From positions 50,523-114,522 of the IMG/VR virus record IMGVR_UViG_3300036791_000264: a stretch of DNA of 64,000 nucleotides. One strand, written 5' to 3'. Below are positions 65 through 60,321 of this stretch, one piece after another (positions within the stretch are counted from its first letter, which is position 1; each line of letters opens with the position of its first letter). Made by a program: the position numbers and the translations under genes. The stretch is from a virus. The notes beneath the pieces are model-generated. The model ran no database searches and was not told where the DNA came from. It saw nothing but the letters and a program-made list of their open reading frames with translations.

Positions 65-961
65 TTAAGAGCCGACGCCACTGGCCTTGTTGCCCACCCT
101 CACCAGGCGCCGCCTGGGAAGCTCAGTGACGGTAGCTATGGGTTCGTGCTGGCTGCTCCTGCCAGCACCGGCAGCTACGAGCTTCCGTACTCGCTTGGCA
201 GGAGTCTTCGGCTTGGCCTGCTCTCGCTCCTTGAGTCGCTTGGCTCGTGCCCTCTCCAGGCTCCGCTGCTTGGCCTTGTCAGCCGCCCTGGCCTCCTTGG
301 ACCCAGGTGGCAACCCGTCCTTCCTGGGGCGCCCACGAGGTCGCACAGACCCCTCTGGTCGGTTCTTGGCGGCTCCAGGCGGCGGTGTGGAAAATGCTGT
401 CTTGGTGAAGGCGTGTCGAGGACCGAACTTTGTCCGGGATCCAGGGCTGTTGAAGTCCAGGGTGGCCTTGGACTCGGACTCCAGGGGGACCGCCGGCAAG
501 ACGTACTGAGGGCTGGGCCTGGTCTGCACCACGATCTTGAAGCTGGTGTTAGCCAGGGCCAGGGCGTCCTCGACATGCACCGGCAGCCCGTTCGTTGGCC
601 CGGTGTTGAAGATCGAGTCAGCCCACGCCTCGACGTCCTCCTGGGTCTTGATCTGCTTGTTCAGCAGGGCCTTGACCCGTACCCCTAGCTTCTCTAGCTG
701 GGGGATGGTGTCAGGGAAGGCTTCCAGCAGCTTGACGGCACTCTGTCGCAGCTTGTCGACCCGCTCAGGGTCAGACGAGTACTCCATGCCAGGCCAGATG
801 ACGGCAGTGTTCTTGAACCACGTCCAGGTGTCGTCGTGGAACACCGGGATGTAGCCCACACGCCCCAGCTTGATGGTGCCATTGAAGCCTGCGATTTTTT
901 GCCAAGCCTCAGTTTCGTTCAACTCCACTCTCCAGATCACTAGCTCTAGCAACGGTCTCAT
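65..961 (-). CDS. hypothetical protein with AT-hook and basic C-terminal tail
   Basis: 298 aa ORF; contains RPRGRPRK (AT-hook core RGRP) and ends PRRRLVRVGNKASGVGS; true start may be slightly downstream. Confidence 0.6.
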   Translation of the reverse strand: MRPLLELVIWRVELNETEAWQKIAGFNGTIKLGRVGYIPVFHDDTWTWFKNTAVIWPGMEYSSDPERVDKLRQSAVKLLEAFPDTIPQLEKLGVRVKALLNKQIKTQEDVEAWADSIFNTGPTNGLPVHVEDALALANTSFKIVVQTRPSPQYVLPAVPLESESKATLDFNSPGSRTKFGPRHAFTKTAFSTPPPGAAKNRPEGSVRPRGRPRKDGLPPGSKEARAADKAKQRSLERARAKRLKEREQAKPKTPAKRVRKLVAAGAGRSSQHEPIATVTELPRRRLVRVGNKASGVGS

Positions 962-1262
962 GCAAGTTCCGCTCTAGGGGTGAGTCGCTCAGGATACGCG
1001 GAGCCTTCCCACGAATCCAGACGCCTAGCGCGAAGGCATGATGTTTTTTCCGAAGCATAATACCCAGGCCACGCCGCCAGGGTGGGGTGATCTCTCGGGT
1101 GAGGGCTATGGAGAGGCGCCGCTGGTGGGGGTTCGGCTGGCCGCTCCAGGTGTAGAAAATCCACCAGGACTTGGTGTTGTCAGGAACTGAAGAGGCGTCG
1201 GGCAGGCTGGGTAGTACCCAGTCGTTTTCCTCCGGATCTCGGCTGTCGGGGTGGATCTCCAA
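909..1262 (-). CDS. hypothetical protein
   Basis: ORF in the tightly packed minus-strand run; aromatic-rich, globular-looking sequence. Confidence 0.45.
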   Translation of the reverse strand: MEIHPDSRDPEENDWVLPSLPDASSVPDNTKSWWIFYTWSGQPNPHQRRLSIALTREITPPWRRGLGIMLRKKHHAFALGVWIRGKAPRILSDSPLERNLHETVARASDLESGVERN

Positions 1263-1368
1263 GAACCTTTTCGTTCTCTGCTAGGGCTTCATCGATCTGG
1301 GCTAAGAGAGCGTCAATCCGCTCATTCAGCACAGGGGCTTTTTTCGGCGGATCGCACTTTTTCGGCAT
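1180..1368 (-). CDS. small Pup (prokaryotic ubiquitin-like protein)-like peptide
   Basis: ATG 2 nt after the upstream stop; LNERIDALLAQIDEALAEN aligns with the Pup helix LTEETDDLLDEIDDVLEEN; lacks terminal GGQ/GGE. Confidence 0.55.
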   Translation of the reverse strand: MPKKCDPPKKAPVLNERIDALLAQIDEALAENEKVLGDPPRQPRSGGKRLGTTQPARRLFSS

Positions 1369-1370
1369 GG

Positions 1371-1853
1371 CTACTCAATGCTCCCCCAGCCTCCGCGTCC
1401 ATACGGGTAAGCGTTCAGGACGGCGTTGATGTACCTCCCAGGACTCTCCACTCGCTTGAAGCGGTTCCAGATCCTGGGGGGCACATTTTCGTAATGCCAG
1501 GGAGTCCCGTCGCGAAAAATAACCTCCAGTTGTTGCCGATTGCGGGAATACCTGGCTTGCAGCGTCCGGGGCCTAGGAGGGTTGATCGTCCTCGTCGGCC
1601 AGTAGTAGTCCCAGGCCGGATCCGGTGTGGGGCCGAATGGGCCTTGTGTGCCGTGTGGCTCCTCGTCGGAAACCAGGGGGAAATCCTCAGGCCGCACGTA
1701 CTGGGGGTGCAGCCTGAGCATGGCATTACGGGCGCGCTCCTCCCGTGCCTGGGAGTAGCTGTCGTAACCGCGGGCCTTCTCCCGTTCGTTGCGTACTGCG
1801 AAGTAGCTGATGCCCCTCCGGGTCGCCTCGCCCCGGATGGACTCTCTGGGCAT
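1371..1853 (-). CDS. KTSC domain protein
   Basis: C-terminal ARYSRNRQQLEVIFRDGTPWHYENVPPRIWNRFKRVESPGRYIN matches the KTSC pattern. Confidence 0.8.
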   Translation of the reverse strand: MPRESIRGEATRRGISYFAVRNEREKARGYDSYSQAREERARNAMLRLHPQYVRPEDFPLVSDEEPHGTQGPFGPTPDPAWDYYWPTRTINPPRPRTLQARYSRNRQQLEVIFRDGTPWHYENVPPRIWNRFKRVESPGRYINAVLNAYPYGRGGWGSIE

Positions 1854-2522: not shown

Positions 2523-2792
2523 GTGTCCATCCCCTTCTCAACCAAGCAGTTTGAGAAAAAACCCAACCCGAAAATGCCCCGCACCACGGTGCGTTTAGAC
2601 AAGCTCGACGCCACCCAGGGCAAGCTCGATCAGAAGAAGGTTCAGAGCATCGCTCAGAGGGGGGCTGACGATGGCACTGACCCGATAGTGGCCCCGTTCA
2701 AGGGCAGGTATCGAGTCCTCGACGGCCACCACCGAGTGGCCGGCGCCATGGAGCGCGGTGACACCAAGATCAAGGTCAAGAGGGTCAAGTGA
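2523..2792 (+). CDS. ParB/sulfiredoxin-like nuclease domain protein
   Basis: PIVAPFKGRYRVLDGHHRVAGA...GDTKIKV is the ParB N-terminal DGHHR motif; N-terminal FSTKQF tag. Confidence 0.75.
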   Translation: MSIPFSTKQFEKKPNPKMPRTTVRLDKLDATQGKLDQKKVQSIAQRGADDGTDPIVAPFKGRYRVLDGHHRVAGAMERGDTKIKVKRVK

Positions 2793-2995
2793 AGAAGCCG
2801 CCCCCAGGCCGCACGCCTAGGGCCACGAACATCTCCAGCTTCTACGACGGCGCCAACGGTTCCCGTCACCCTGGTGACTGGCCCACGCTGCTGCGTCGTT
2901 CCTGGGAGGAACGCTTCGGCCAGACCCAGCCCTACCCGCACGCGTCCGACAACATCGAGAGCCGCGGCGCCAGAGCCAGTCAGTACACGAGTTGA
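2789..2995 (+). CDS. hypothetical protein
   Basis: 4-nt start/stop overlaps with both neighbours. Confidence 0.5.
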   Translation: MKKPPPGRTPRATNISSFYDGANGSRHPGDWPTLLRRSWEERFGQTQPYPHASDNIESRGARASQYTS

Positions 2996-3513
2996 GCGTC
3001 GTCCTGGTCGCCATCGAGGGGGTGCTGGGGGAGAGCAGTGTCATCCACGGCTTCTATCCCATCCCGGACGGGGTCAAGCTGGCCCACGCTCTGCGCTCGG
3101 GCTACCGCCTGCACTTCAGCAGTGTCCAGGCCGGCGCGGAGGCGGTTGAACACTGGCTGCTGATCAACGGCATGAGCCAGCCGGCCTTCTACGAGAACTT
3201 GATAGTCAGGGACTCAAGATGGACCGATTTGTCCGATTCCATGCTCAGGGCAGAGCATGCCGCCCACCTGAGGCGCACGGGGGTTGACCTGGGCTTGGTC
3301 GTGTCCGGAGACCCCGCCACCATCCTCCTGGTGAGCGAAATGGGGGTGCCGGCGCTGCTGTTCACCAACCCCACCTATCGCTGGGGTGAGTACCGGCCCG
3401 ACAAGAAGAGGATGCCCAAGCCCTGGCAGGACATCGATGACGAGATGGTCCGACAGATGGAGCTAAAGGCCGGTGATCCCCGGCTCAGGGAGTACGAGGG
3501 AGAGCAAGTATGA
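2992..3513 (+). CDS. HAD-fold-like protein, catalytic Asp residues absent
   Basis: VVLVAIEGVL in place of hhhDhDGVL; later PIPDG...LAHAL pattern typical of phage HAD proteins. Confidence 0.5.
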   Translation: MSVVLVAIEGVLGESSVIHGFYPIPDGVKLAHALRSGYRLHFSSVQAGAEAVEHWLLINGMSQPAFYENLIVRDSRWTDLSDSMLRAEHAAHLRRTGVDLGLVVSGDPATILLVSEMGVPALLFTNPTYRWGEYRPDKKRMPKPWQDIDDEMVRQMELKAGDPRLREYEGEQV

Positions 3514-3746
3514 GCATGGAAGCCCTGTCCAACAAGCAGTTCAACACCGAGAAGTCGATGCTGTCCCAGGGCAACGAGGACGAGCTTGCCACCAGGGTCC
3601 GCGGCATCCAGAACCTGACCTCCAACGTCTTCCGGCCCGCCTTCTCCTCCGACTACACCAAGGTTCACTCGATGCCCTCTGGCACCCAGTTCGGTGAAAA
3701 CCGCCAGATGTCAGAGGGCATGGCAGAGGGAGAGGAAGAGGAGTGA
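3510..3746 (+). CDS. small protein with N-terminal ALSNKQF tag
   Basis: ATGA overlap with upstream gene; shared tag. Confidence 0.65.
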   Translation: MSMEALSNKQFNTEKSMLSQGNEDELATRVRGIQNLTSNVFRPAFSSDYTKVHSMPSGTQFGENRQMSEGMAEGEEEE

Positions 3747-3749
3747 GTC

Positions 3750-4730
3750 ATGAGCGCGCTGGAGTCCCTTGGCGCCCAGTTCCACGGGTTCACGGGCGGG
3801 CCTGCTGAGGCCCACGCCATTGTCAACCCGCCACGACAGGATCGTGACCAGGAGTACTCGCTAGAACATGGGTGGCGCGACAAGCCGAAGGCTGAGCAGG
3901 GCAGGCTGTTCTCTCCTGAGTCGGTAGCTCGGCCTGAGGCCCACCAGCAGACTCCAGAGCGGTTCGCTGCTGATCCTCGGACGTGGTGGCATGGACGTGT
4001 CACAAAGGGCGGTCCTCAGGGCCGGCTGGGCGGCAGTGGCGTAGGTCGAGGGGAGGGCTTCCACGCCGGCACAGAGGGCGCCGCCCGCCAGCGCGTCACT
4101 CAGAACATCAAGCGTCGGGGCCTCAAGGAGGGCATGTCCGGTCACATGTATCCTCTGCGGATCACGGGACCGGTAGAGGGGCCAGAGAACTTGCAGCCCG
4201 ACGTCAACGTCCATCGGGAGCTTGGTCCGCATCGGTATGGAGCCTGGGGTGGAGCATCCACCGGGGGTCGCTCTACGGGCTATCTCTACGAGAACAAAGT
4301 CGAAGGTGCCGGTTCGATCTCGGTCGGAGTGCCACAACGTAAGGGCTTTATGTCCACTCACCGGGAGATGGTCAAGTCCGCACAGCAGCGCGGTGAGAAG
4401 GTTCACCCCAACATCGCCTGGGCAGCCAAGACGGCCCCGGAACATACCGGGGAGAAGATCAAGGAGGTGCGTAGATACAGCAGCACGCCGCCCCAGGGTC
4501 ATCAACAGGGACTGCACGAACAGTTCCCTGAAGGCAATCGCATAGTGGATCAGGGTGGAACATACGATCCTCGCCGTAGGGAAGCCTTCATGGGGTTGCA
4601 TCCCGAACCCACCAGGACGCACCGGACCAGCTACACCACCGAGTCCGGTCGACAGAAGGGCGTTTACGCCTTCAGTACCGATCAGCCCGGTAGCGCTCTG
4701 CTGAGTAAGCAGTGGCAGCCAATGTCATGA
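3750..4730 (+). CDS. putative ADP-ribosyltransferase-fold (ART-PolyVal-like) protein
   Basis: WWHG ... GFHAGTxxAAxxR ... YPLRI ... GYLYENxxEGxGSIS order resembles phage ART-like domains. Confidence 0.5.
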   Translation: MSALESLGAQFHGFTGGPAEAHAIVNPPRQDRDQEYSLEHGWRDKPKAEQGRLFSPESVARPEAHQQTPERFAADPRTWWHGRVTKGGPQGRLGGSGVGRGEGFHAGTEGAARQRVTQNIKRRGLKEGMSGHMYPLRITGPVEGPENLQPDVNVHRELGPHRYGAWGGASTGGRSTGYLYENKVEGAGSISVGVPQRKGFMSTHREMVKSAQQRGEKVHPNIAWAAKTAPEHTGEKIKEVRRYSSTPPQGHQQGLHEQFPEGNRIVDQGGTYDPRRREAFMGLHPEPTRTHRTSYTTESGRQKGVYAFSTDQPGSALLSKQWQPMS

Positions 4731-5125
4731 GTCACCGCGCCCTCAACTCGGAGCAGTTCCGGTCCTTCAAGGCTGACCCCGACGAACCCGGTGGTAGGGG
4801 GTACCACACTGTCGAGGTCTGGCATCCCGAACATGTCGGGACTGAGTGGGCACAGGCTCGCCCCCAGGAACGTGACCGGTACACAGGATCGAGTGCGGAT
4901 CCTGGGCACCGTCCCATCGGCTCGATCTCATGGCACCACCGGACTGGTGAGATCCTTGGCATGCATGTGGTGCCCGAACATCAACGCCAGGGCGTAGCGA
5001 CGGCTATGCACCGTCACGCCCATGAACTCGCGGCCACGAGTGGCGTCGTTCATCCTGAACACTCCTCCTATCGCACCCCTGCTGGTGACGCCTGGGCACG
5101 TTCGACTGGGGAGCGGCTTCCATGA
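4727..5125 (+). CDS. GNAT-family acetyltransferase-like protein
   Basis: ATGA overlap at 4727; HVVPEHQRQGVATAM is acetyl-CoA-binding motif A; HSSYRTPAGDAWA. Confidence 0.7.
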   Translation: MSHRALNSEQFRSFKADPDEPGGRGYHTVEVWHPEHVGTEWAQARPQERDRYTGSSADPGHRPIGSISWHHRTGEILGMHVVPEHQRQGVATAMHRHAHELAATSGVVHPEHSSYRTPAGDAWARSTGERLP

Positions 5126-5472
5126 GCCAGCGCGCCCTAAATAACGAGCAGTTCGGGGACTACACCTTGGAGTACGCCAAGCCGGATATGTACATCCCTA
5201 GGCACCGTATTGTGGCGAGTAAGGAGGGGCAACGGGCCGGGGAGATGACCTGGCATCCCAAGACCCATGCTGTCACTGGCATCAATGTGGAGGAGGGTGA
5301 GCGTCGCCAGGGACTGGCTACGGCCATGTGGAAGATGGGCCAGAACGTGCGCCCTAAGCCGGTGCATTCCGCTGATCGCACCACCGCTGGGGAAGCCTGG
5401 GCCAAGTCGGTGGGAGGACGCTTGCCTCGTCGTAAGCCGGTGCTGGACCCGATCTCCAGGAGGGAAGTGTGA
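5122..5472 (+). CDS. GNAT-family acetyltransferase-like protein (paralog of 4727)
   Basis: NVEEGERRQGLATAM; HSADRTTAGEAWA. Confidence 0.7.
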   Translation: MSQRALNNEQFGDYTLEYAKPDMYIPRHRIVASKEGQRAGEMTWHPKTHAVTGINVEEGERRQGLATAMWKMGQNVRPKPVHSADRTTAGEAWAKSVGGRLPRRKPVLDPISRREV

Positions 5473-5600
5473 GCCGGCGCGCCCTGAGTCCGCAGCAGTT
5501 CGACCTCATGGTGACCAACGAGCGCGAGGTGGAACAGAAGAGGCGCGAGGATAGGGCTGGGATCCAGTGCCCAGAGGACGAGGATAAGGATGAGCGTTGA
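5469..5600 (+). CDS. 43 aa peptide with N-terminal ALSPQQF tag (not in ORF track)
   Basis: GTGA overlap; translates MSRRALSPQQFDLMVTNEREVEQKRREDRAGIQCPEDEDKDER*. Confidence 0.6.
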   Translation: MSRRALSPQQFDLMVTNEREVEQKRREDRAGIQCPEDEDKDER

Positions 5601-33501: not shown

Positions 33502-33542
33502 TTGAATGTTGGCACCATGAGGGCCTATGGTGCCAACATTCA
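33502..33542 (+). promoter_or_regulatory. promoter embedded in a perfect 16-bp inverted repeat (operator)
   Basis: TGAATGTTGGCACCAT-N8-ATGGTGCCAACATTCA; TTGAAT-N18-TATGGT lies within it. Confidence 0.7.
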
Positions 33543-33558
33543 CGCCAGGAGGTGCCCA

Positions 33559-34173
33559 ATGCCATTGATAAAAGTCAAGGTGGATCAAGCCGACATCGAC
33601 AGAGCAGATAGAAGCAAGTCCATGAAATGTGTGGTGATGCAAGCCATCGCTCGCACTATCCCCGACGCTCATCACATCGATGTGGACGTCGCCACTATTC
33701 GCTGGACGGGTGGCGACGGGGTCCGGGTCTGTTACCTGACCCCCTACAGCGTGTCGGGCTACGTGGTGGCTTTCGACGCCGGGGACGAGATCTATCCCTT
33801 CAGTTTTCAGTTGGACGCTCGTAGCAAGGTGCCCATTCGCCAGCGTAAGCGCACCAAACCGGGTCTGGCCGTTCACCAGGCTCAGGAGGATGTACGGAAG
33901 GCCAAAAAGGAACTGAAGGAGGCCGAGAGCGGCGGGGCCACGGTGAAGGTGGTTCGTGAGTCACAGACCAAGGTCGAGGCGACCCAGGGGCGGCTGGACA
34001 GCGTCAAGGCGGCTTATCGGGGCCAGCAACAGCAGGTCAACATTGGCGATAGCAGTCGAAACGCCCCCCGCCGTGTCTCAAGAACCTCTCGCCGTAGTTA
34101 CGGACACCGGGTGATGCGGGTGAATCAAACCCCTCGCCGGCTGGTGAAGAGGAAGGCGGCTGCGACTAGCTGA
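33559..34173 (+). CDS. basic hypothetical protein
   Basis: AGGAGG SD before ATG 33559; ends TPRRLVKRKAAATS. Confidence 0.65.
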   Translation: MPLIKVKVDQADIDRADRSKSMKCVVMQAIARTIPDAHHIDVDVATIRWTGGDGVRVCYLTPYSVSGYVVAFDAGDEIYPFSFQLDARSKVPIRQRKRTKPGLAVHQAQEDVRKAKKELKEAESGGATVKVVRESQTKVEATQGRLDSVKAAYRGQQQQVNIGDSSRNAPRRVSRTSRRSYGHRVMRVNQTPRRLVKRKAAATS

Positions 34174-55183: not shown

Positions 55184-55813
55184 CTACTTGCCCACCCTGA
55201 CCAGGCGCCTGCGTCCCACGACTGCGGTAGTCGTTGCCGTGTCCCAGGGCTGAGGTGGCGCCTCGGTGCGGCCCTCCAGGGCGGTGATCACGTCCTGTTG
55301 GAACTTGGTCATCTCGGGGCCGGCGTCCACGGCGTAGGCGATGCGTGCCAGGACGTACGCCTCCGCGATGTTGGTGTCGTCAAAGTCCACCGACCATCGC
55401 TTCAGGACTTCCTTGGCGATCATCTCCTTCTTGGTGCTGCCGTTGCCGGAAACGAACTTCTTGAGTTGCCCAGGAGCCACTAGGACGGGGTAGGCCCGTG
55501 GGTCGGTGGCCTGGAACAGGGCCAAGACGGTCAGCTTGATGGTGGCCCCGATCTCCCCGGAGGCGTGCTGGCCGTACCTCTCACCCATGGAGTACGCCTC
55601 CATCGCCACCTTTTTTATGATGCCACCCGGTTCATGAGCGACGATTTTCGTGAACTGGTCGGTGATCTCGATCATGAGCTTCCGGAGCCGTAGTACCCCC
55701 TTGGGCATTGTGCCACTTGGTTTCCAGGTGGTGATCAGCCCCCTGGTAGGAGACCAGGCCACCAGGGCGCAGTTCCCGGAGCCGGGGTCAATCCCTATGT
55801 AGACGTCGGTCAT
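55184..55813 (-). CDS. ruvC: RuvC-like Holliday junction resolvase
   Basis: YIGIDPG, VAMEAY, PGQLKKFVSGNGSTKKE, DTNIAEAYVLA. Confidence 0.85.
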   Translation of the reverse strand: MTDVYIGIDPGSGNCALVAWSPTRGLITTWKPSGTMPKGVLRLRKLMIEITDQFTKIVAHEPGGIIKKVAMEAYSMGERYGQHASGEIGATIKLTVLALFQATDPRAYPVLVAPGQLKKFVSGNGSTKKEMIAKEVLKRWSVDFDDTNIAEAYVLARIAYAVDAGPEMTKFQQDVITALEGRTEAPPQPWDTATTTAVVGRRRLVRVGK

Positions 55814-58601: not shown

Positions 58602-58851
58602 AGACGAGAACAGGAAGCCGAGACTCTGCCACAGCGTGTCGGTAGAGGCTGATGAGATCGTCAAAGAGGAGGGTGATGGAGCGGCGGTTGTCAGTGCGCT
58701 TGAACTCGACAAGTTCGGTGTCGGTGCGACCGTCGTTCTTACGGTCCCAACGCGCACCAGAACGCGGGTTCCTGACACCTCCAAACCGCTCCATTCCCTT
58801 CCGCTCCTGCTGTCTCCACAACAGGAGCGTCCGACGACCCCCCGCCCTCAC
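58243..58851 (-). CDS. PD-(D/E)xK nuclease (Holliday junction resolvase-like)
   Basis: QQE...FGGVRNPRSGA...KNDG...LVEFKRT; GTGA coupling to recA at 58851. Confidence 0.7.
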   Translation of the reverse strand: MRAGGRRTLLLWRQQERKGMERFGGVRNPRSGARWDRKNDGRTDTELVEFKRTDNRRSITLLFDDLISLYRHAVAESRLPVLVFELGGREWVVLPEPDYHQLVLHRQAAGTTGHLRADPPPVARLRKMPGITRKPVLQRPPAQQHPGAGGSQRVPGNPPGPPRSLPRPGGLSGLRDRERRALGSVGRNQRKGAAPDQASETP

Positions 58852-59948
58852 GACTTCGCCTTCGTCCTTGCGAGGCGCCGCGGGGAGGGGCGGGACTCCT
58901 CGTGACGAACGCCCTTCACTACGTGGTTCTGGACAGCATCCCGCAGCTTCTGCTGCAACGTCAAGTCCCACCTGGCCTGTTCTTCCAGGGCGGCGCGCCC
59001 GTGCCAGGACTCGGCGCCCAGGTGGTAGTAGCTGCCCTTGATGGCGAACACCTCGTAGAGGACGGCCAGGGTGACCAACTCCTTGGCGGCGTCATACGAT
59101 CCGGGTGAGATCCCGGCCTCGTTGTGGTCGAAGTAGAAGTCGAAGACGGCCACCTTCTCAGGGGGGTAGCTCTTGTTCTTCTTGGTCAGGGCCTTGATGG
59201 TGATTCCGACCTTGCGCTTCTCCTTCCGATCCCCCTCGTCCAGCCACGAGTCACGTACCAGTTGGAGCCTGGTGGTGAACCAGTAGTTCTTGGCGCGGCC
59301 CCCTGGGGTAGTGCGTGGGTCACCGAAGAGGACGCCGATCTTCTCCCGCCACTGGTTCACAACGAAGCAGGTCACGGGCCTGTCGTCCTCGATCAAGGAC
59401 CGCTTCATGGCCGTGTAGCTCTTGCGGAAGAACTTGCCGATGAGCCTGGCGGCGAGGCCCACCTGGGTGTCATCCATGGTGCCCTCGCCCTCACTTATCG
59501 GTGATAGGGCAGGCATGGAGTCGATGACCAGAACGTCGGCGGTTCTACTCTCCAGAACCATGATGGCGGCGTTGCACGCCTCCTCCAGGATGTTGGTCTG
59601 CATGACCAGGATCCGGTCGGTGTTGCAGCCCAGGTCACGCGCCCAGCCCGGTACGAACTCCTCCGCGGCCACCCAGAAGGTGATGTGGTCGGGGTTCAGG
59701 GCCTGCTGGGTGGCGATGGTCTTGAGGATGATGGTGGTCTTGCCGCTGGACTCGTCCCCGTATAGCTCGTGGAAGGCGTTGGTCTGCCAGCCGCCCCCCA
59801 GGGCCAGGTCGAGGGCGTAGCTCCCGGTGGAGATCCGGGGCAGGTCGGAGTAGCGGATCTGGCTGCCCCAGATCACGGTCTCAGGCCCGTACTCCTTGTT
59901 GATCTCGGCCATCACCGTGGTGATGGTGTCGACCTTGGTCGCGGTCAC
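58848..59948 (-). CDS. recA: RecA recombinase
   Basis: ISTGSYALDLALGGG, GDESSGKTT, VIDS, AARL, NQWREKIGVLFGDPRTTPGGRA; start re-assigned to GTG 59948. Confidence 0.95.
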   Translation of the reverse strand: MTATKVDTITTVMAEINKEYGPETVIWGSQIRYSDLPRISTGSYALDLALGGGWQTNAFHELYGDESSGKTTIILKTIATQQALNPDHITFWVAAEEFVPGWARDLGCNTDRILVMQTNILEEACNAAIMVLESRTADVLVIDSMPALSPISEGEGTMDDTQVGLAARLIGKFFRKSYTAMKRSLIEDDRPVTCFVVNQWREKIGVLFGDPRTTPGGRAKNYWFTTRLQLVRDSWLDEGDRKEKRKVGITIKALTKKNKSYPPEKVAVFDFYFDHNEAGISPGSYDAAKELVTLAVLYEVFAIKGSYYHLGAESWHGRAALEEQARWDLTLQQKLRDAVQNHVVKGVRHEESRPSPRRLARTKAKS

Positions 59949-60070
59949 TTCCCCCTGCTGGTCTTCTTGGCCGGCGCCTTCTTCTTGGTCTCTTCCTTCT
60001 TCTCCTCCCCTTTCTTGCCGAAGGGAGTGGCCTGCTTCCCGCCGAACGGTTCCTTCTTCTTGGTGACCAT
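59945..60070 (-). CDS. 41 aa Lys-rich peptide (not in ORF track)
   Basis: MVTKKKEPFGGKQATPFGKKGEEKKETKKKAPAKKTSRGK*; GTGA coupling to recA. Confidence 0.55.
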   Translation of the reverse strand: MVTKKKEPFGGKQATPFGKKGEEKKEETKKKAPAKKTSRGK

Positions 60071-60321
60071 CACTTCCCTCTATTCTCTGGTTTGTTGTAG
60101 CGGCTCTTGGTCGGTTTGGCCTCGCCGGTCTTGGGCATGGGCTTGCGCCCGGACTCACGGGTCTCGGCTGCCTTCTCCCCCATGGCATGGCGCCGGCTCT
60201 TGCCCTGAGCCTGGGCGTTGGAGATGGCAGCCGCCTTGCTCTTGGAAAAACCCTTGTCCTTCAGGGCTTCGTAGCTGTCGGCTTTTTTGATGGATGGGCC
60301 GGGATCTTTTCCTCCTGGCAT
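60070..60321 (-). CDS. small basic protein (DUF7218-like)
   Basis: AGGAGGAG SD; PGPSIK....YEALKDKGFSKSKAAAISNA. Confidence 0.65.
   Translation of the reverse strand: MPGGKDPGPSIKKADSYEALKDKGFSKSKAAAISNAQAQGKSRRHAMGEKAAETRESGRKPMPKTGEAKPTKSRYNKPENRGK

Follow-up and report, generated by a model that had tools for sequence, protein, structure and literature searches.

The question raised by this locus is whether a phage may carry a reduced copy of Pup, the conjugated degradation tag of the bacterial proteasome, and what such a copy could do during infection. To our knowledge, the Pup-proteasome system is the sole ubiquitin-like degradation pathway of bacteria, and no natural protein that inhibits it is known to us. 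The same system is a drug target in M. tuberculosis. A full-text literature search found no paper on a phage-encoded Pup mimic. An earlier note on this DNA, made from its letters, had proposed that a very small open reading frame (ORF) encodes a Pup-like protein without a conjugatable end, which could act as a decoy.

The stretch analysed here (the window) makes up the right-hand end, 64 kb long, of a virus record of 114.5 kb in IMG/VR. That record has a CheckV completeness of 98% and a GC content of about 62%. Phage sheath and baseplate genes are present, which identifies the phage as a myovirus, and the record also carries genes for RecA, DnaB and SNF2 helicases. The small ORF and its neighbours are all read from the minus strand:

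1371 to 1853, minus strand: KTSC-domain gene, 160 aa, upstream of the small ORF (Pfam KTSC, E 2.4e-12).
1180 to 1368, minus strand: the small ORF, 62 aa, from the ORF list.
1267 to 1332, minus strand: Pup-like helix core of the small ORF, residues 13-34, VLNERIDALLAQIDEALAENEK, corresponding to Pup residues ~31-52 (from the translation and the profile alignment).
1180 to 1262, minus strand: small-ORF tail, beginning with GDPP and overlapping the first 83 nt of the 117-aa gene in a different frame.
909 to 1262, minus strand: 117-aa gene of a conserved phage family, with a TTG start here and ATG in two relatives.
65 to 961, minus strand: DUF6424-like gene, 298 aa, downstream, overlapping the 117-aa gene by 53 nt (Pfam, E 8.9e-14).

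The ORF list and the translation bear out the ORF as it had been described, with its SGGK stretch and its RRLFSS end. The ATG is the first start codon past the stop of the KTSC gene (TAG, 1373-1371), leaving a gap of 2 nt, and the only Shine-Dalgarno sequence is a distant one, GGGGGAG, 12 nt upstream. The encoded protein begins with a Lys-rich segment holding a single Cys (MPKKCDPPKKAP), continues with an acidic amphipathic helix in its middle stretch (VLNERIDALLAQIDEALAENEKVL), and finishes with a basic, Pro/Arg-rich part that contains SGGK and whose final residues are RRLFSS. The AF2 model built with the family alignment consists of one helix, spanning residues 10-36, with both ends disordered (mean pLDDT of 81 for residues 11-20 and of 92 for residues 21-30).

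The order KTSC gene, small ORF and 117-aa gene is kept in all eight related viral contigs, which were gathered by scanning viral contigs with the proteins of the KTSC and 117-aa genes. The 117-aa protein has 74 metagenomic homologues, and the core of its gene outside the overlap shows a dN/dS of 0.11-0.21. Its AF2 model (pLDDT 77) gave no convincing match in the PDB, the best hits being E 0.12 with Foldseek and Z 4.3 with VIA-align. The DUF6424-like protein carries an AT-hook-like stretch and ends in PRRRLVRVG. Searches of the first 6000 nt of the window at the DNA level, as well as tblastn searches with the small ORF, the 117-aa and the DUF6424 proteins, found no real match among 50,697 phage records. 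Neither PafA/Dop (PF03136) nor proteasome genes (PF00227) were found in the 114.5-kb phage record.

Whether the small ORF is a gene was judged from its relatives and from the selection acting on them. A search of 5.8 billion proteins returned one close relative, and the family profile, run with HMMER over 1.84 billion representative proteins, recovered seven small relatives (60-79 aa) and two long repeat proteins; one of the latter, P0008, carries CUE/UBA-like repeats, is unrelated and was rejected. Homologues of the small ORF thus come from eight viral contigs and seven metagenomic proteins, and in the seven metagenomic records it had been predicted independently by gene callers. The residue pattern of the family is conserved down to ~35% identity. 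Selection was estimated from Nei-Gojobori counts with a custom script: the helix codons of the window and of contig L003 differ by six synonymous and two non-synonymous changes (pN/pS 0.10), those of L153 and L156 give a pN/pS of 0.17, and the ratio for the helix is below 1 in 28 out of 28 pairs among the eight contigs, with synonymous sites near saturation in the distant pairs. The small ORF is a real phage gene encoding a short, mostly disordered protein, and the acidic amphipathic helix of ~25 residues is its only clearly selected part.

The ESM Atlas gave no usable match, NCBIfam gave nothing, and PHROGs gave nothing below E 0.08 for the small ORF. Scanning genome contigs with the family alignment produced 600 pattern matches, none of which was confirmed as a family member, and the family was not found in full length in 301 sampled Actinomycetota genomes. 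The cellular genomes searched thus offer no instance of it as a prophage gene.

The tail of the protein tells a different story from the helix. In all contigs, the last ~27 codons of the small ORF overlap the 117-aa gene by 83-101 nt. Within this overlap, the dN/dS is 0.45-1.4 in the frame of the small ORF (about 0.9-1.4 in five of six pairs) and 0.1-0.64 in the frame of the 117-aa gene, and tail residues 37-62 show a pN/pS of 0.5-4.1 in the small-ORF frame across the eight contigs. The tail, SGGK and RRLFSS included, mostly evolves under the constraints of the 117-aa gene; SGGK itself is not conserved, reading SRGK or PRGK in close relatives. A short element nevertheless stands out, and it is placed as follows:

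1208 to 1220: 13-bp palindrome, TGGGTACTACCCA in the minus-strand reading, coding for WVLP in the 117-aa gene and for the GTT that is invariant in the small ORF.

The 12-nt stretch TGGGTACTACCC, which with the next base makes up this palindrome in the window, is identical in all eight diverged contigs despite its use of rare codons (GTA accounts for 8.9% of the Val codons of the phage and CTA for 5.4% of its Leu codons). This identity indicates an extra constraint at those sites, whether it acts on the small protein or at the level of the nucleic acid. A Gly/Thr-Thr sequence is the processing junction of proteasome beta subunits. The resemblance of the tail's invariant G-T-T to that junction is purely speculative and may be no more than a coincidence with the WVLP codons.

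Most relatives also carry PRRLVRR, PRLVRR or PRLRRP in the tail; the copy of the window and that of L004 are without PRRLVRR. Across the ORFs of the phage, the pattern [RK]RL[VIA][RK] occurs five times, with 0.44 occurrences expected, and four of the five sites lie within ~15 residues of the C-terminus, in the DUF6424, a 223-aa, a RuvC-like protein and RecA. The recurrence of a PRRLVRR-like tail motif in the phage would speak against a proteasomal partner, since the partner could be an unrelated phage or host hub.

How strong, then, is the resemblance to Pup? The Pup segment that the earlier note had quoted was correct, as PDB Pup chains read LTEETDDLLDEIDDVLEENAE. Compared singly, the phage ORF gives a sub-threshold match to the Pfam Pup model (PF05639; E 0.073, 14.4 bits for a gathering cut-off of 27), and scores higher against another Pfam family, IDEAL (PF08858; 19.7 bits, E 7e-4), also below the cut-off, which is 22. 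A phmmer search of the ORF against the PDB found nothing relevant, and a narrow custom Pup HMM did not recover the small ORF. The likeness is carried by the family profile. With five members, the profile placed six Pup chains on top of 177,635 PDB sequences (E 0.004). With 10 and 13 members, the top six matches were again all Pup, with a best E of 1.2e-6 to 1.5e-6 and a weakest of 4e-3, and the next non-Pup match had an E of 0.26 to 0.57. Scanned singly, 9 of 10 members match Pfam Pup, with a best E of 2.4e-4, whereas IDEAL is matched by 5 of 10 (best E 2.1e-4), the Pfam scores of all members being below the gathering cut-offs. The proposed likeness to Pup is in this way upheld at the level of the family, while the search with the single ORF that the note had suggested as a check falls short of significance.

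A comparison with genuine Pups gives the same picture. True pup genes were gathered from bacterial genomes by looking for DNA that codes for DEIDDVLEEN; among the matches listed with a named taxon all were from Actinomycetota, and the 114 extracted ORFs all ended in GGQ/GGE. Aligned by hhalign to 108 distinct Pups, the family reached a probability of 96% (P 3.4e-9, score 48.6, 28 columns), with the best of 100 column-shuffled Pup alignments at 15.3 and the reversed alignment at 23.8. The match is to one short, acidic helix of heptad pattern, and because the reversed Pup alignment still attains this score, generic amphipathic periodicity makes up a share of the signal, the larger share being sequence-specific. 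In a six-frame search of five actinobacterial genomes (two Streptomyces, Nocardia, Mycolicibacterium and Parafrankia) with the family profile, the top match was the pup helix in all five. Extended to 301 Actinomycetota genomes, the search gave a match at E <= 0.01 in 143 of them (133 of 291 when ten genomes flagged as unpublished are left aside: G006, G023, G087, G093, G125, G153, G179, G231, G244 and G273; none of their sequences is used here). These matches are nearly always single, cover profile positions ~10-36 and lie within a frame of 60-110 aa, and the six best of the 143, when checked, were pup genes ending in GGQ/GGE. The helix is, in our judgement, very probably derived from Pup or a mimic of it.

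The part of Pup that is reproduced can be delimited closely. The alignment spans Pup residues ~26-54 in M. tuberculosis numbering, residue n of the window protein corresponding to Pup n+18. The positions invariant in the family, L22, D26, L29 and E31, are Pup L40, D44, L47 and E49, and the near-invariant D19, I25 and N32 are Pup D37, I43 and N50, so that D-x2-L-x2-ID-x2-L-x-EN is common to both proteins, position for position with Pup 37-50. Positions 41-50 of the set of 108 Pups were fixed by the way the set was collected, and their 100% conservation is by construction. In a helical wheel D19, L22, I25, D26, L29 and N32 fall on one face, with E31 off it. The central-helix motif of Pup 37-50 is found in the phage protein both as a sequence match and within the AF2 helix of residues 10-36.

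Structural work on Pup describes two modes of recognition. On the coiled coil of Mpa, Pup residues 21-51 form a single long helix, while PafA contacts two shorter helices, H1 (38-47) and H2 (51-58), together with the C-terminus (PMC5286830, PMC8755798, PMC8223512). Some 22 N-terminal residues of Pup are needed to span the OB and AAA rings of Mpa (PMC8755798), and in-cell NMR found the strongest Mpa-dependent broadening at L39, E42, I43, D44, D45, L47, E49 and A51 (PMC3769308). In the phage family, E-N is followed by 1-4 residues, then by one hydrophobic residue and a Gly/Pro break, and the alignments end at Pup ~52-54; a hydrophobic residue stands at or near the F54-equivalent in 13 of 13 members before the break (G37; P40 in 11 of 13). 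The second helix H2 (Pup 51-58), which occupies the PafA/Dop groove, is absent in all 13 members. The absence of a conjugatable GGQ/GGE end, noticed at the outset in the window protein, holds for every member (0 of 13 have it), the C-termini of the family being LSS, LSP or EPT. Without that end and without H2, ligation of the phage protein to other proteins is impossible. The helix of the small ORF has only 9-12 residues ahead of it, against ~20 in the case of the Mpa-bound helix of Pup, and residue 1 of the small ORF aligns with Pup residue 19; the N-termini of some relatives may be longer, although their start codons are uncertain. Judged from these sequences, the missing H2 makes ARC/Mpa, rather than PafA/Dop, the likely partner of the phage helix.

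Set beside Pup as a whole (PF05639; PDB 3M91 and 3M9D with Mpa, 7OXY and 7OY3 with Dop), the phage protein is likewise small and mostly disordered with one acidic amphipathic helix, and its likely host clade matches. It differs in lacking the GGQ/GGE end and H2 (AEDFVRAYV), and in its N-terminus, short and Lys-rich where that of Pup is an acidic/Gly-rich threading segment of ~20-30 residues. It has a basic Pro/Arg tail besides, and its gene belongs to a phage operon, with the KTSC, 117-aa and DUF6424 genes as context, instead of lying beside dop, prcB/prcA, pafA or arc. On this sequence comparison, the phage protein is outside the Pup family in the strict sense, the central helix being the only defining feature of Pup that it has. 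In its mode of action, it would be most like a truncated Pup.

A host that has Pup is likely here. The terminase of the phage is 50% identical to those of the Streptomyces myophages BRock, Alone3, LuckySocke, GiJojo and pSt2308, whose genomes are of 112-116 kb, and its portal is 53-60% identical to those of the same phages; this closeness points to a Pup-bearing actinomycete as the likely host, pup being present in Streptomyces genomes. The same Streptomyces myophages are the best full-length matches of the DNA polymerase, at ~30% identity, and a KTSC domain is common to the window phage and to GiJojo, BRock, Alone3 and others. No close cultured phage was found at the DNA level. Of the KTSC/small-ORF/117-aa/DUF6424 module, nothing but the KTSC domain was matched in the cultured Streptomyces relatives, and in GiJojo the annotated genes on either side of the KTSC gene are without a Pup-like helix. 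No tRNA genes were found in the 64-kb window. The GC content of Streptomyces is higher than the 62% of this phage; this difference, like the lack of the small ORF in the cultured relatives, counts against a decoy aimed at the Pup system of such a host.

Taken together with what is known of Pup, the observations above suggest a mechanism, of which we infer the partner, the inhibitory effect and the advantage that the phage would gain. During infection of an actinobacterium, the helix would fold, like that of Pup, on the N-terminal coiled coil of ARC/Mpa, the proteasomal ATPase. With an N-terminus too short to be threaded into the pore, the protein would remain bound on ARC/Mpa and compete there with pupylated substrates, so that Pup-dependent proteasomal degradation would be blocked. 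As a secondary possibility, the H1-equivalent could also bind, more weakly, in the groove that PafA or Dop offers to Pup. That the small protein, which cannot be conjugated, competes for the coiled coil of the host ARC/Mpa is a reading we favour tentatively, as something that may quite possibly be so. More tentatively still, the whole family may represent ligation-incompetent Pup decoys of phages, natural inhibitors or hijackers of the ARC/Mpa-proteasome in which the docking helix alone has been kept.

Other explanations account for part of the same data. The helix could be a generic acidic amphipathic one, of coiled-coil or IDEAL-like type, serving phage partners such as the KTSC, 117-aa or DUF6424 proteins, with a likeness to Pup that is convergent and unconnected with the proteasome. 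IDEAL does outscore Pup for the single ORF (19.7 versus 14.4 bits) and is matched by half of the ten members, the reversed Pup alignment scores 23.8, an unrelated protein with CUE/UBA-like repeats also matches the family profile, and the gene is kept in fixed synteny with three phage genes of unknown function. The IDEAL domain, found mainly in Bacillota, is a short helix with a literal IDEAL/IDxAL motif. Although it is the best single-sequence Pfam match of the small ORF, the invariant E-N that follows the motif in the family and its Val variants (IDKVL) go with Pup, as does the count of matching members (9 of 10, versus 5 of 10 for IDEAL). Moreover, the shuffled alignments reach at most 15.3 against 48.6, which makes the match sequence-specific, Pup is the sole significant match in the PDB and the single match in six-frame actinobacterial genomes, and the positions invariant in the family are exactly those of the Pup motif D-x2-L-x2-ID-x2-L-x-EN. 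All in all, we regard a generic helix as somewhat unlikely.

Two further alternatives keep the tie to Pup and assign the protein another role. It might work in trans as an adaptor whose helix docks on ARC/Mpa while the basic tail holds a protein or nucleic acid, delivering a target without ligation or tethering ARC. The division into two modules, helix and basic tail, would suit this role, as would the resemblance of the tail motif to the C-terminal PRRLV[RK] of four other phage proteins (5 occurrences against 0.44 expected) and the GTT maintained through rare codons; yet the tail, read in its own frame, is under no purifying selection (pN/pS about 0.5-4) and lacks PRRLVRR in both the window's copy and L004, and we hold this role to be quite improbable. 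We give little likelihood to an inhibitor that would engage the Pup enzymes PafA/Dop through H1 only, a binding that would be expected to be weak, and the family lacks both H2 (51-58) and the GG[QE] that enters the active site, and has a conserved Gly/Pro break after the helix. On the side of the enzymes are the inclusion in the aligned stretch of Pup 38-47, which is H1 of the PafA complex (PMC5286830), the alignment of the profile to the Dop-bound Pup peptides 7OXY and 7OY3, and the hydrophobic residue at the F54-equivalent in 13 of 13 members. Finally, it is very unlikely that no functional protein is made and that the ORF is an upstream regulatory one, coupling or controlling expression of the 117-aa gene, possibly with a +1 shift into it. 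Purifying selection on the amino acids of the helix (six synonymous versus two non-synonymous changes between the window and L003), a specific residue pattern kept down to ~35% identity and the independent predictions in seven metagenomic records all argue for a protein, even if a start 2 nt past the KTSC stop, served by no Shine-Dalgarno other than a distant one, the overlap of 83-101 nt with a gene whose TTG start is weak here, and the +1 step in frame at the next overlap of the operon would fit such a regulatory element.

For a competitor at ARC/Mpa, a working analogy is offered by the small inhibitors that phages direct against AAA+ proteases of their hosts, such as CIII of lambda, which acts on FtsH, and PinA of T4, which acts on Lon. 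CIII, through a conserved amphipathic helix, inhibits a host ATP-dependent protease competitively or mimics its substrate. These are also very small phage proteins, but their targets are FtsH and Lon instead of ARC/Mpa-20S, they have no sequence relationship with the family described here, and neither mimics a conjugated degradation tag.

Closer counterparts exist among viruses themselves. Full-length pup genes ending in GGQ/GGE occur on IMG/VR viral contigs (records L145-L151), one of which is a 66-kb record with terminal repeats that is rated complete, and a search for PafA/Dop in four of the viral pup records found none. These genes and the small-ORF family are alike in that a Pup helix is borne by a phage without PafA/Dop in the same record. 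They differ in that the full-length genes keep H2 and GGQ/GGE, and their products could be conjugated by the PafA of the host, which is impossible for the small-ORF family, and beyond the helix no similarity between the two can be detected. Acquisition of pup by phages whose hosts have Pup evidently takes place, and the small-ORF family could be a cut-down descendant of such a phage-acquired gene.

If the proposed competition at ARC/Mpa is true, the family would be a direct hint that phages manipulate the Pup pathway, and that this system matters in infection. It would also provide a minimal natural peptide ligand, that is, a ready-made competitor for mapping or inhibiting the Mpa coiled coil, and an example of a conjugated tag that evolved into a non-covalent decoy. 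Side by side, the docking-helix family and the full-length viral pup genes suggest a range of phage strategies against pupylation.

The small ORF of the window (1180-1368, minus strand; 62 aa), which encodes a Pup-like helix without the conjugatable GGQ/GGE end, is followed by two genes that are joined through long conserved overlaps in succession, with the reading frame stepping by +1 at each of them:

Window 1180-1262, minus strand: overlap of 83 nt from the small ORF into the 117-aa gene, +1 step
Window 909-961, minus strand: overlap of 53 nt between the 117-aa gene and the DUF6424-like gene, +1 step

Both frames of the first overlap are kept in all eight related contigs, and those of the second in the first four related contigs, the ones examined there. 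Within the first overlap, 12 nt read on the minus strand as TGGGTACTACCC do not show a single difference among the eight diverged contigs, which fixes the peptide WVLP in the frame of the 117-aa gene and the peptide GTT in that of the small ORF, and this invariant stretch uses the rare codons GTA and CTA. Together with the next base, it forms in the window a 13-bp palindrome, TGGGTACTACCCA (1208-1220). The extra constraint on these nucleotides could come either from dual coding or from a DNA or RNA element.

The product of the middle gene (909-1262) is a member of a protein family with 74 or more metagenomic representatives, all without annotation. Its AF2 model (pLDDT 77) shows a five-stranded sheet and a C-terminal helix, for which nothing convincing was found in the PDB (best Foldseek E-value of 0.12, best VIA-align Z-score of 4.3).

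A PRRLV[RK]-type motif occurs close to the C-terminus of four unrelated proteins encoded in the window:

Window 65-961, minus strand: DUF6424 protein
Window 33502-34173: 223-aa protein
Window 55184-55813: RuvC-like protein
Window 58848-60188: RecA

Five occurrences were counted, against 0.44 expected from shuffling. Most relatives of the small ORF, either from viral contigs (L005, L158, L159) or among metagenomic proteins (P0004, P0009), carry this motif in their tails, and the copy in the window itself lacks it. The motif may represent a common docking or targeting peptide.

Full-length pup genes with GGQ/GGE ends are also present in IMG/VR viral contigs (L145-L151; for example, L147:3860-4099), and one pup-bearing record has 66,281 bp with direct terminal repeats and a completeness rating of 100%. 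The PafA/Dop family of Pup ligases and depupylases (PF03136) was found in none of the four pup-bearing viral records searched.

A 731-aa protein, P0008, matched the small-ORF family profile with an E-value of 7e-5, a value that results from adding up weak repeats: six CUE/UBA-like motifs (FPxxxDxxIxxALxxNxxHAGxAxQWLE) of an unrelated "IDxAL..N" helix class. We rejected it as a relative, and it stands as a warning for searches with short motifs.

Finally, a plus-strand block encoding small proteins (window 2523-5600) diverges from the minus-strand operon at a distance of 14 nt, and includes:

Window 2523-2792, plus strand: protein with weak similarity to VapB-like/ParB-like proteins
Window 4712-5125, plus strand: GNAT acetyltransferase
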